Shown: positions 27,001 to 30,000 of the stretch, in pieces
Position numbering within the stretch: the stretch's first letter is position 1
Layout of the letters: each line of letters begins with the position of its first letter
Assembly (NCBI RefSeq): GCF_053078305.1
Contig: NZ_CP166879.1
Direction: 5' to 3' (one strand)
Length of the DNA stretch: 64,000 bases
Program-made: the position numbers

Positions 27001-30000
27001 GTAACCTGAAAGGGGATGTGCAGCCAGGATGTTTCTGGTGGTGGTAAATCTGCCCACCTTTGAGAGCAGATATCGTCAGTCATGACGATGAAGGTTTCTT
27101 TATAACTGCGCCCTTTATTAACGGGCTTTTTCTGACAGCAACACCATGCTGTACTGGTGGTGTTTTAACCCTGACGGGAGTTTTTGTCCGTCGGGGCGAA
27201 GGCTCCCGTTTTTTTACAGGAGTCTTTATGTCAACGTTTATTTTGTGCCCTGAACCGGGCATCTCTTCTTTTTTCCGGCGAATGACGGCTCAGTTGCGGG
27301 TGTTTTTTTCCCGCAATAACCTGTCATATTACAGTCGCTGGTACACTAATCCGGCCGGCAATCTGAGCGTGCGGGTCTGTATGTTCCGTCGTGGCGGTGT
27401 CTGGACACCCTGCCTGTATTACCGGCAGGGAATGTATCGCAACGAGTACACAGGATGGTATCAGCCGTTACCGCGTGAGGTCATTTATCTGAACCGGTTT
27501 ACCGGACGGATATCCCGTCGCAGGACATGGCATGCTGCCTGCCGTATGGCGGAGCAACTGACCACCCTGCGTTACCGGTTTGGTCTGCAGGGTGATGGAA
27601 TCGTCGCACAGCCCTGCTGATTTATCATTTATTACCCTGTCGGGAACACGCTTCCCGCAGGGCAGGTGTGTTCCCGTTATTTTTTGTATCTGAGGTGAAC
27701 ACATGCATAGTCTGTTAATACTCCTTTACGTTGTTGTATGGCGTGCCTGCACCATTCTTCGGGTAATCGCACCAGTGTCGGCTGTCCGTGCGTGGTGTGA
27801 GTATCAACTGGAAGGTATGACGATACTTCGTGATGCGTACAGCTCGCTGGCTAAGGCGGCTGGAATGCAGAATGATGCATTTGAATATACTGAAAGTATT
27901 GCACGTCATCTGGGCTACAAAAGCGGTGGTGACCAACTGAAATCAGGACTTTTCCGGCCGTTTCTGTGGCATATACGTGTGAAAGGCCACAGGCTGGGGG
28001 CTGTCATGGAGATGGAGGCATGGAAGACATGGAAGAATGGCTGTAACGATGTCTGCAATCCATGGGAGGATGTCTGTAATCCATGGGAGCGTGGATGGAA
28101 CGATGGCTGGACGGAATGTCTGAATCAACGTATAGCCGGGCTCCTGAAGCAGGCCTGTATTGAATTTTCCGACGCAGACTGACGGGCAGGATGCCAGTCA
28201 GTCACAGGAAGGATGTCAAATCGTGAGCGATGCAACTGCCATTTTGCAATGATGGCTGTTTTGCTCCCGTAACGGTTTTTCTTTTACTTACTGCACCGTG
28301 TTTTTGCGCCGGTGTTTTCCCTGACGGGAGTTTTGTTCCGTCAGGGACAGGACTTCCTTTAAGAGACGGAGGTCATCATGTATTCACCTTTAATTGCTCA
28401 TTATTCAGCGCTTCAGACGCAGTCTGCTCTGCTGGCTCATATCAGTCAGATGGAAGGCGAGCTGATGCGGTTACGTGCCTGGCAACGGCTGGGTATTACC
28501 CCGGAGCCGGATGATGAGACGGAGCCTTCACTGGTATACGTGTATCTGTGGGATACCGGCGAGGCGCTGGGCTGGCTGTTGTATGACCTGGAGCAGGAGG
28601 AGATTTCCGCACCGGGAATTCAGGCCCGTCAGGCACTCGACAGTCTGATGGCTCTGGGGCGTGAAATTAATCATGAAATCTGGGCTGACAGTATCAGTAC
28701 CGGAAAGATGGTGGCCGGAGCGGATGAATATTTTGCCCGGCACGACATGATGTAATTCATGACCTGACTCTGACGGGGGAGTTCTCCGTCCGGGAGACAT
28801 TCCCCGTTGTTTAGTTTTAACCATGAGGAATGTTCCATGTCTGAGTTATCTTCACGTCCGGTCCGTGAGCCGGTGGTATATACCCTTGAGCAGGTTTCCA
28901 CAATACCGGAAAAGCAGTGGCATGCTTTTGTTCTGGCTGTCACTGAAACCTTCTGGCAGTTGCCGGAGGCGTTACGGCCGCAGAATGCGTATTTCGGCTC
29001 CCTGACCCGGGCGTCAGAGTTGTTTCCGGTAACGGACACGCTGGCGTTTTACTGCCGGTCTGCCGACGGGCTGTGGTCGGTGAATGTCACTATTGAGCGG
29101 GAGCACAGCCGGAATATCCTGGCTCTTAATGAGCTGAATTTCGGACGTCAGCCGGGAGATTTCTTTGCCCGTACAGTCTTTGTGCTGTTGCACAATCTGT
29201 GTCCGGACTGTTTTCGTATTCATTCCACTGTCGGTGGTGCCAGCTGGTCGCTGCCGCTGAAATGGATAAAACGGTACCTGGGGCATGAGAATTTTTCTGC
29301 TCCGGAGTCTGTATTAACCACCCCGGTAAGGGGAGATGCGTTTGACAGCTTACTGCTGCAGTTTTTGTCCGGTCAGGGGCGACAGTTATCCCCGGATGAC
29401 TGGGCAGCACTGGAAGAGGCCGAATATCAGCTTTACTGGCTGCGGGCTCTTGCCGGTGGGCGGTAACAGAACGCCGTAGTTTCTTTATCCGGAATAACGT
29501 CATCACGTATTCCGTCATTATATCACCCGGCAGGGACATATCCCTGTGGGGAGAGTCCCGGCTTTATTCAGGAGAATTGTTATGGGACTCGATATTTACT
29601 TTCTGGCTCGTGATAACCATCACAGTGGTGCCGTTGTGGGAACACAGGAACATCAGGAGGTGGGGGCTTTCCGTAAGGTGAAACCGCTTCTGACATGGTT
29701 TCGTGAACATACCGGTGCTTCAGATGAGCAGCATGCTTTCCCTGTAACCCGCAGTTCACTGGCTGCATTATTGCGCGACCTCAGTATGCTGACACCGGGG
29801 AACTGCCACAGGCTGTTTCCTTATGTCACAGGCTCGTGTTTACGGGGGGAAGATTATGCCGGTGATTACTGGTATGACGTGGATGACGTAAAAGCGTGGG
29901 TCAGCAATACGCTGAAGACGTTTGATTTTGAGCGTCGTTCACTGGTGATGCTGGCGTTGTGGTAATTCTGGCCAGTCTGATTTTCGTTATTAATTTAACT

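Follow-up and report, generated by a model that had tools for sequence, protein, structure and literature searches.

Introduction

Transcription attenuators and riboswitch platforms (trp, pyrBI, ermK-type) work through mutually exclusive RNA helices that share a strand, and an earlier hairpin can pre-empt the terminator; in ermK-type leaders, termination is combined with sequestration of the Shine-Dalgarno (SD) sequence. In fold-back inhibition, as in the IS10 transposase gene and the phage T4 genes e, soc and 49, upstream pairing silences long transcripts and a promoter inside the hairpin gives a shorter, translatable RNA. Here we analyse an inverted repeat that a sequence-only reading of a 64,000-nucleotide stretch of Escherichia coli DNA (contig NZ_CP166879.1 of RefSeq assembly GCF_053078305.1; "the window") had noticed upstream of two island genes. 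On comparative grounds, the repeat is most likely a conserved cis-acting RNA element rather than an operator. In the model that we favour, with a probability of about 0.62, it would be the first hairpin of a switch-like RNA leader that stands before every gene in a row of eight and works as a gate with two states and kinetic control.

Delayed folding offers another relevant form of control. In the MS2 maturation gene, hok and aapA3, the SD sequence is buried at equilibrium by an upstream complement, and an earlier partner can transiently hold either this complement or the SD sequence, which makes expression dependent on folding kinetics (PMC4615214, PMC6733600). The same region of the window also holds two orphan motifs. 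STAXI (RF01728), reported in 2010 near ssb, topoisomerase, anti-restriction and integrase genes, was proposed to act as RNA or possibly as single-stranded DNA (ssDNA) (PMC2864571). EFASI (RF02957) is an orphan RNA motif whose function is unassigned (PMC12370729).

The leaders described here resemble attenuators: helices compete for a common strand, one being a GC-rich hairpin with a U-tract behind it, and an earlier hairpin is able to pre-empt that one. Like the fold-back systems of IS10 and T4, they pair the ribosome site with an upstream segment; unlike these, they have no promoter signal upstream of or inside the leader. STAXI and EFASI lie in the same region of the integrative conjugative element (ICE) and on the same strand as the leaders, and STAXI heads every leader-carrying row. 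STAXI consists of pseudoknot repeats with UUCG loops, whereas the row leaders are hairpin pairs tied to ribosome sites and belong to no Rfam family: we obtained no Rfam match to them even at E ≤ 5, and the STAXI matches end at 24768 and 27035, leaving the palindromes outside. In the papers searched on STAXI and EFASI and on DUF1281, ArdC and ICEs, we found no description of the leaders.

Results

The inverted repeat

A pattern search allowing up to three mismatches located the palindrome CCCTGACGG-N10-CCGTCRGGG at 27169-27196 (copy 1, one mismatch, reading CCCTGACGGGAGTTTTTGTCCGTCGGGG) and at 28319-28346 (copy 2, no mismatch, reading CCCTGACGGGAGTTTTGTTCCGTCAGGG), with a weak third site of three mismatches at 27635-27662. 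None of 100 dinucleotide-preserving shuffles matched the pattern, so the repeat upstream of the two island genes is real. Its arms are perfect in copy 2 and carry one mismatch in copy 1, just as the sequence-only reading had it; the mismatch is a T opposite G, which gives a G·U wobble in the sense-strand RNA. The common position before the starts at 27228 and 28378 also held up, and the distance of ~35 bp was corrected to about 32 nt, there being 31 nt between the end of each copy and the ATG of the annotated gene.

The similarity between the copies extends beyond the 28-nt palindrome, over ~113 nt (27118-27230 and 28268-28380), and within it a small upstream hairpin shows a compensatory change (CACCA/TGGTG in one copy, CACCG/CGGTG in the other). 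A degenerate third copy at 28770-28798, before gene 28837, is intact in E. coli NC101 (L002) and in a Salmonella Typhi-like ICE (L005). The proteins encoded downstream of copies 1 and 2 are unrelated to each other and neither has a Pfam domain; homologues of the gene after copy 2 were found in E. coli only, which gives no functional clue. Copy 1 lies outside STAXI, starting 134 nt past the end of the match.

Architecture of the leaders

Both palindromes sit in a row of eight same-strand genes, which we call the accessory (anti-restriction) row. Reading and folding the eight intergenic gaps of the row revealed a common plan in all of them, carried by differing sequences. We number the leaders 1-8 by row order, each standing before its row gene. 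A leader is intercistronic, roughly 70-80 nt long, and comprises four segments. Segment A, CCC-nnn-GGGG(A), is a 5′ arm that begins with CCC and ends in a purine run (GGGG or GGGA); its inner part together with the hairpin loop, termed A′, resembles a ribosome-binding site. Segment B is the complement of A, and the A:B helix is the palindrome hairpin. Segment C is a pyrimidine-rich anti-SD sequence, usually followed by a U-tract, and segment D is the SD and start region of the next gene.

C is complementary to two partners. With D, it forms ribosome-site hairpins that range from -8.0 to -19.6 kcal/mol in the window; with A′, it forms long GC-rich hairpins of terminator shape that are followed by U5-U7 (27173-27210, -27.8; 27641-27676, -25.2; 31082-31113, -21.0 kcal/mol). 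A:B and A′:C are mutually exclusive, as are A′:C and C:D. A scan of 24000-33500 for terminator-like sites gave 25, compared with 9.1 ± 3.5 in shuffles, and the A′:C helix of copy 1 was its top match. The palindrome hairpin A:B itself lacks the U-tract of an intrinsic terminator, its stem being followed by CGAAGGCU in copy 1 and ACAGGACU in copy 2. At the copy 1 locus a GC-rich stem with a U-tract is provided by the alternative A′:C helix alone, and at copy 2 it is absent. Mutually exclusive helices, one of which has a terminator shape, occur at copy 1 and in leaders 2, 6, 7 and 8, and are likewise absent at copy 2.

Covariation across related elements

Our comparative set comprises 15 ICE loci from 12 genera of Enterobacterales, gathered through DUF1281 homologues and their encoding contigs; a protein-anchored scan of genome contigs with a single DUF1281 protein had given two loci only. 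The sources are two further E. coli lineages, the Salmonella Typhi-like element, another Salmonella element, and ICEs of Pectobacterium, Xenorhabdus, Dickeya, Yersinia bercovieri, Y. pestis, Mixta, Pantoea, Rosenbergiella, Enterobacter and Serratia symbiotica. A same-strand STAXI heads the row in 15/15 loci. The gene content of the rows is mosaic, with KlcA/ArdB, CbtA and RadC also present in relatives, and the same leader type precedes unrelated genes.

The leaders of DUF1281 genes fold into A:B + C:D in every species, with stems that differ (CCCGTGAGG/CCTCACGGG, CCCATTGGGGGA/TCCCCCAGTGGG, CCCCAGGG/CCCTGGGG). In a MAFFT alignment of 15 DUF1281 leaders, made from sequence only, pairing in A′:C stands at 93.5%, and both sides have changed in 7 of its 11 pairs. 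This level of pairing was reached by 0/500 shuffles, and slid controls gave 55-70%. On the same alignment, A:B + C:D are 81% paired; MAFFT misregisters the divergent A:B stems. A MAFFT alignment of the methylase leaders (A2) contains register shifts in C and was left out of the counts.

We then used a covariance model, R1, which was trained on the 15 DUF1281 leaders only, with the A:B + C:D structure, and run on both strands of 274 kb. R1 gave 94 matches at E ≤ 1, all of them in row leaders; 72 were on the sense strand and 64 ended at the start codon of a row gene. It recovered 60 of 101 leaders, including seven of the eight in the window, among them copy 1 (27159-27230) and copy 2 (28309-28380, E = 1.5e-4). 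The transfer genes (type IV secretion system) and the nan cargo of L001 contained no R1 match. The alignment derived from R1 has the family consensus CCC-nnn-GGGG(A)…loop…CCC-nnn-GGG, in which the outer and inner G:C clamps are nearly invariant and the three middle A:B pairs are GC, AT, TA and CG in comparable numbers. In this alignment, which is fitted to the structure being scored, 88.5% of positions are paired, compared with at most 73.5% in shuffles.

To be independent of alignment register, we compared duplex energies of each leader's own segments with those of segments swapped between leaders (72 leaders). Own segments paired better for A:B (-13.4 vs -7.9 kcal/mol; 70/72 leaders), A′:C (-16.0 vs -9.0; 71/72), the hairpin loop alone with C (-6.1 vs -2.7; 64/72) and C:D (-12.1 vs -7.5; 61/72). 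In the negative controls, B:C and loop:D, own segments were no better than swapped ones. A′ is more similar to its own D than to the D of other leaders. An A′:C duplex of -10 kcal/mol or stronger is present in 67 of the 72 leaders, and at least four U occur in the 8 nt after it in 54 of these 67. By these computed pairings, all three helices are leader-specific and kept by compensatory change across the 12 genera. Conservation of the arm sequence is limited to the CUGACGG subfamily: hairpins of the CTGACGG type stand before different genes in Pectobacterium, Y. pestis, Mixta, Pantoea and Salmonella, with loop, C and D changed together.

Leaders were also seen outside this set. A plasmid-borne ICE of Serratia has R1 matches at its row genes. 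Three metagenome contigs (L036, L046, L112) carry a CCCTGACGGGG…CCCCGTCAGGG hairpin and then a GTTTTCC…GGAGAAC ribosome-site hairpin before an open reading frame (ORF), with flanks unlike the E. coli leaders; the leader type may thus extend beyond the ICEs studied. An exact-pattern scan of metagenomes returned more than 120 loci, nearly all of them unrelated GC-rich palindromes and about six true leader copies. By a rough estimate this count is close to chance for ~17.5 specified bases, and the scan is uninformative about function.

Strand and molecule

The leaders fold better as sense-strand RNA. Over the 101 leaders, mean folding energies are -38.5 kcal/mol for the sense and -35.8 kcal/mol for the antisense strand, the sense strand being better in 72 leaders and worse in 26. 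The sense folds contain 346 G·U pairs, compared with 231 in the antisense folds, and 32 A·C 1×1 loops, compared with 50. For the 68-69-nt leaders of the two copies, energies are -31.4 and -31.6 kcal/mol as sense RNA (z = -5.2 and -5.0 relative to shuffles), -25.3 and -24.5 kcal/mol as antisense RNA, and -11 to -13.6 kcal/mol with DNA parameters on either strand. Co-variation of C with the ribosome site, the U-tracts and the strand bias together point to an element that acts as sense-strand RNA, and not as duplex DNA or as an antisense single strand serving as template after transfer. The sequence-only reading had named a conserved RNA hairpin as one of two possibilities; this possibility is supported and extended by all four Watson-Crick types at the middle pairs, the G·U wobbles and the better sense fold.

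Energetics of the two folds

At equilibrium the leaders are computed to fold as A:B + C:D, which buries the ribosome site; 95 of the 101 minimum free energy folds have a paired SD core. In the alternative fold, A′:C with its U-tract takes the form of a terminator and the ribosome site is freed. A thermodynamic switch criterion combined with a U-tail picks out 40/101 leaders and 6/505 shuffles. Opening the ribosome site costs a median of 12.2 kcal/mol in the eight leaders of the window and 9.1 kcal/mol in all 101, compared with 6.5 kcal/mol for other genes of the same ICE. In leaders 1 and 2 the cost is only 2.0 and 4.3 kcal/mol, because A′:C compensates. Ribosome-site helices of such stability reportedly nearly abolish initiation at equilibrium, according to de Smit and van Duin.

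In a nested-structure model, which excludes pseudoknotted routes starting from a loop toehold, the two folds are separated by barriers of 12-24 kcal/mol. For leaders 1, 2, 6 and 7 the barrier is 11.6-20.4 kcal/mol; the barrier from A:B to A′:C is also high in this model, and A:B forms before A′:C. Given such barriers, the outcome would be decided during transcription and not by later equilibration.

Search for promoters and inputs

The only conserved promoter in the region is a TTGACA-17-TAnAAT element ending ~8-14 nt before each STAXI, and the leaders are therefore likely to be internal to a polycistronic RNA with STAXI at its 5′ end. A promoter of their own, upstream of or inside A and yielding a shorter translatable RNA in the manner of IS10 and T4, was rejected: TTGnnn-16..18-TAnnnT occurs in 0/72 leaders. 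The information content upstream of A is near zero, and there are no sigma70-like hexamers at the leaders. Leader-peptide attenuation was rejected as well, short ORFs being present in only 20/101 leaders and at inconsistent positions. An H-type pseudoknot between loop and C with A:B intact would, on inspection, need connecting loops longer than the 0-2 nt available to span stems of 9-12 bp. CsrA-type sites are not apparent by eye, GGA being absent from the DUF1281 leaders and mostly base-paired elsewhere.

Leaders of the individual genes

All features in this section are on the + strand. Leader 1 (gene 27228) has palindrome copy 1 as its A:B hairpin, CCCTGACGG/CCGTCGGGG with one U·G wobble (27169-27196, -16.7 kcal/mol). 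Its A′:C helix is the 17-bp stem at 27173-27210, which has its 5′ arm in common with A:B and is followed by U7 at 27211-27217. C:D (27198-27227, -12.8 kcal/mol) joins the anti-SD GGCUCC to GGAGUC, the SD region of gene 27228; in NC101, GGCTCC has become GACTCC, so that a G·U is replaced by an A-U pair. Upstream of leader 1, at 27143-27165, lies a small, weakly terminator-like hairpin, CACCA..UGGUG followed by GUGUUUU. It is homologous to a hairpin upstream of leader 3 at 28293-28319, GCACCG..CCGGUG followed by UUUU (-9.9 kcal/mol).

Leader 2 (gene 27703) spans 27635-27704, with A:B at 27635-27662 (-17.2 kcal/mol), A′:C at 27641-27676 followed by UUAUUUUUU, and C:D at 27666-27704 (-10.8 kcal/mol), which covers the SD sequence and AUG of the gene. 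Its counterpart in Rosenbergiella shows compensatory changes in all three helices. In leader 3 (gene 28378), A:B is palindrome copy 2 extending to 12 bp (28318-28347, -21.5 kcal/mol), and C:D, GGACUUCC paired with GGAGGUC (28351-28374, -8.0 kcal/mol), occludes the SD sequence. Leader 4 (gene 28837; 28766-28836, R1 match 28759-28825) contains the degenerate CUGACGG hairpin copy, a terminator-shaped hairpin followed by UGUUUAGUUUU, and GACAUUCC, which pairs with the SD region GGAAUGU.

Leader 5 (gene 29582; 29526-29590, R1 match 29517-29584) has A:B at 29526-29551 (-18.2 kcal/mol) and C:D at 29553-29590 (-15.1 kcal/mol). Leader 6 precedes the ArdC gene at 30058 and occupies 29999-30056, with A:B at 29999-30024, A′:C at 30005-30036 followed by U5, and C:D at 30025-30056. 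In NC101, ArdC is lost through a deletion that begins just past the stop codon of the 127-aa gene and stops ~12 nt short of the stop codon of ArdC (L002 8707-8745 vs window 29980-31057); the deletion removes the ArdC leader, and its ends are not at hairpins. Leader 7 (DUF1281, 31149; 31077-31143) has A:B at 31077-31102, A′:C at 31082-31113 followed by U5, C:D at 31106-31143 and an R1 match at 31067-31151 (E = 1.4e-26). Leader 8 (N6-methylase, 32208; 32148-32213, R1 match 32136-32219) has A:B at 32148-32175 and C:D at 32176-32213; folding pairs GGGAACAC (32153-32160) with GUGUUCCC (32182-32189) as A′:C, followed by UGUUUUU.

Island setting

The window was matched in 83 of 5,426 complete E. coli genomes, mostly Shiga-toxin-producing strains. 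According to the RefSeq annotation of one matching genome, it is an ICE with TIGR037xx-type transfer genes; it is of the SPI-7/ICEclc type, and its cargo includes nan genes and the subtilase cytotoxin genes subAB. The annotated genes of the row, all on the + strand, are five unnamed genes (27228-27620, 27703-28182, 28378-28755, 28837-29466 and 29582-29965), ArdC (30058-31035), DUF1281 (31149-32096) and an N6 methylase fragment (32208-32852). Gene 27703-28182 contains a 21-nt tandem duplication at 28048-28089, two copies of GATGTCTGCAATCCATGGGAG with 95% identity, which repeats the peptide DVCNPWE. A plain intrinsic terminator on the + strand, GCGCCAGUC UUCG GACUGGCGU followed by UUUGUU (32914-32943), stands after the last row gene.

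A promoter scan and Rfam place a sigma70-like promoter (26828-26856) and then a STAXI motif (26870-27035) at the head of the row, on the + strand. Rfam also locates a second STAXI at 24603-24768 and EFASI at 25268-25425, before a gene with an Integrase_1 domain. One STAXI heads each gene row and another lies upstream of EFASI and the integrase-domain gene. The STAXI promoters read TTGACG-17-TATGCT (24560-24768 region) and TTGACA-17-AAAAAT (26828-27035 region). STAXI is probably the 5′ end of a transcript, because the position of the promoter upstream of it is conserved in most copies inspected from related ICE loci. Both STAXI copies lie in a 237-nt direct repeat of 99% identity (24598-24834 and 26865-27101), which includes ~65 nt downstream of them; weaker similarity continues to 24852 and 27120. 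SD-like GAGAGGAGC and GAGAGGAAC stretches occur in the STAXI repeats (26897-26990), and the C segments of the leaders are anti-SD-like; pairing between the two in trans, or recruitment of ribosomes, is conceivable. The Klebsiella IncF plasmid NZ_CP132652.1 (L142) carries a STAXI-like sequence and an integrase-domain gene and has no row and no R1 leader match, so STAXI can occur apart from the leaders. A perfect inverted repeat with arms of 22 bp around a 7-nt loop (25468-25518) lies in the gap between EFASI and the Integrase_1-domain gene, which starts at 25553; the repeat has no U-tract after it.

The end of the ICE (52354-56754) encodes a UvrD-like helicase, a TraI_2 relaxase, an integrase and a tRNA. 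In the ICEs of Mixta, Pantoea and Yersinia the row directly adjoins this end. Here, ~19 kb of cargo (32853-52353) lie in between, comprising insertion sequence remnants, nan sialic-acid genes with nanR, subAB, type I secretion genes and a YadA-like adhesin. The cargo also contains a strong match to the small RNA family STnc100 (RF02076; 137 bits, 47733-47935).

Discussion

In the proposed gate, A:B would fold first during transcription and, by holding A′, would decide the fate of C. With A:B standing, RNA polymerase would read through and C would then lock the downstream ribosome site. Were A:B prevented from forming or opened, A′ could capture C; this would lead to termination if the polymerase was still on the U-tract, and to unlocked translation if it had already passed. 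The loop, which is always complementary to the 5′ part of C, could be the toehold for strand displacement, through pseudoknotted intermediates that are beyond the energy model. The trigger could be a processing event on the RNA, an RNA-binding protein, a helicase, STAXI/EFASI RNA, or no more than the time that passes before refolding; the input may be a protein or an RNA ligand.

A number of points weigh against such a gate. All of the evidence is computational, and the energy models leave out pseudoknots, proteins and ribosomes, which bears in particular on the barriers given above. The loci are phylogenetically related, so that p-values are inflated and counts overstate independence, and the structure alignment (A3) was fitted to A:B + C:D. 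Even when the ribosome site is held open, roughly half of the leaders keep A:B as their most stable fold. The U-tract, lying just before the SD sequence, could be an S1 or standby enhancer instead of a terminator tail. Among the 101 leaders we found no sensing input, that is, no conserved leader peptide, no aptamer-like domain and no Rfam match. Coupling to a ribosome that ends translation upstream was rejected, the median distance from the stop codon to A being 45 nt and the distance being ≤10 nt in 2/69 leaders. Leader 3 (copy 2) is the least complete of all, having no U-tract and a weak A′:C helix; here all that is left of the switch is a pair of static hairpins. Under the strict thermodynamic criterion, 54/101 leaders do not count as switches. 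These last two observations, and a search for a trigger (peptide, ribosome, promoter) that found none, favour a static RNA, in which a stable intercistronic stem-loop acts as an mRNA stabiliser, processing barrier or insulator beside an ordinary terminator and a structured ribosome site. A static stabiliser or insulator role is a serious rival for at least some leaders, and as an account of the family we judge it unlikely but deserving of weight. It leaves unexplained why the loop is complementary specifically to its own C, why A′:C has the best support of the helices in an alignment that was made without fitting to it, and why A′ resembles its own D over the D of other leaders; such three-way co-variation is hard to account for unless the alternative pairing is used.

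The sequence-only reading had also offered a shared operator for a dimeric regulator, naming NanR-like or AraC-family proteins of the island. A duplex repeat that is bound by such a regulator (island-encoded AraC-family, NanR or other) and co-regulates two genes would fit the perfect 9-bp arms, their identical distance from two start codons and the recurrence of the CCCTGACGG arm in several genera. However, the arms vary and their pairing persists, the middle positions showing all four Watson-Crick types, and the G·U wobbles and sense-strand folding advantage would be meaningless in duplex DNA. There is no -35/-10 at or upstream of the hairpins and no conserved signal upstream of them. A 40-nt query found 100 places in 62 of the 5,426 complete E. 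coli genomes, 1-4 per genome, all in unannotated intergenic DNA and always in the context of this ICE, which is not the distribution of a regulon-wide operator. In metagenomes, the exact palindrome sits elsewhere in unrelated contexts and in a number close to the chance estimate. NanR in particular is disfavoured, since loci from other genera keep the hairpins with no nan cargo next to the row. We therefore regard the operator as very improbable; an ICE protein may nevertheless bind the CCCTGACGG subfamily as duplex DNA.

An ssDNA structure used in conjugative transfer (a priming (ssi) site, an ssDNA promoter or an attC-like cassette mark), as once suggested for STAXI, would suit the leading-region-type genes of the row (ArdC and the methylase here; KlcA/ArdB, CbtA and RadC in relatives), the Integrase_1-domain gene, STAXI and EFASI that adjoin it, and its mosaic content with the same leader type before unrelated genes. 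Yet the co-variation of C with the downstream SD sequence and start codon and the U-tracts after A′:C are RNA-level features, and it is the sense strand that is favoured, whereas a strand that enters as template would be the antisense one. Folding with DNA parameters gives weak structures (-12.5 to -13.6 kcal/mol), an Frpo-type promoter would need longer stems, and attC-like cassette sites were rejected, RYYYAAC/GTTRRRY cores occurring in 0/101 leaders and the NC101 ArdC deletion not being bounded by hairpins. We think this explanation has little chance of being right. The idea of a chance palindrome or generic REP/BIME-like repeat with no specific role draws on the occurrence of the same GC-rich palindromes in many unrelated metagenome contigs. 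It is hardly credible in view of the covariation, of a position relative to start codons that is conserved in 12 genera, of the expectation of no such palindrome in the window, and of a copy number in E. coli that is not that of a high-copy genomic repeat.

If the kinetic gate is correct, its significance lies first in the genes it controls. The row (ArdC, DUF1281 and a DNA methylase, with KlcA/ArdB, RadC and CbtA in relatives) is the anti-restriction and establishment kit of a widespread enterobacterial ICE family, which includes a subtilase-cytotoxin carrier here and SPI-7/YAPI-like islands elsewhere. An RNA gate before each gene would mean that expression is controlled after transcription start, gene by gene, by a device that is not in Rfam and of which we found no description in the papers searched. 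For STAXI and EFASI, to which no function has been assigned since 2010 and 2017, it also provides a testable context, with STAXI as the presumed 5′ end of the transcript that passes the gates. The leaders provide a sequence signature for locating such rows, and the compact natural three-way RNA switch (mimic of the ribosome-binding site, anti-SD, SD) could be reused in synthetic operons.

A more speculative extension, which we rate as improbable and base on analogy, is that STAXI and the leaders are one system. STAXI might make the polymerase resist A′:C in cis, in the manner of put or EAR RNAs, or its GAGAGGA loops might titrate the C segments. If so, only transcripts from the STAXI promoter would let A′:C form without terminating, and all ribosome sites would be open. 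Other read-through transcription would be terminated or translationally locked, which amounts to a double lock. The anti-restriction genes would then be expressed at one defined moment only, such as shortly after the element enters a new host, and the orphan STAXI motif would gain a function.

Comparison with known systems

Imperfect palindromes between co-directional genes recall REP/BIME and attC elements, and in attC, too, structure is conserved over sequence. REP elements, however, have hundreds of copies per genome and the leader element has 1-4, and the core sites, bottom-strand folding and IntI partner of attC were not seen for the row leaders. The arrangement of STAXI relative to the leaders is that of the processive antitermination RNAs (HK022 put, Bacillus EAR), in which a structured RNA lies 5′ of a long operon with multiple terminators; STAXI is without sequence or structural similarity to put or EAR, and the likeness is one of analogy only.

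The leaders may work like the delayed-folding systems of MS2, hok and aapA3, with which they share an SD sequence that is buried at equilibrium and an earlier alternative partner for the anti-SD strand (here A′:C); the barriers computed between the two folds of the leaders are large. The known systems differ in being single genes of phages or toxin-antitoxin loci, whereas in the leaders the trap hairpin is also terminator-shaped and the module is serial; kinetic control is here a prediction. Unlike attenuators, the leaders have no leader peptide, aptamer or tRNA- or protein-binding module that we could find. In topology their alternatives are 1:2 + 3:4 and 1′:3, the latter looping out segment 2, where attenuators use 2:3, and they are repeated before nearly every gene of the operon, where attenuators stand once at its head. 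By analogy, then, the logic of the row leaders is that of attenuators combined with delayed-folding translational control, and they differ from both in topology and serial repetition.

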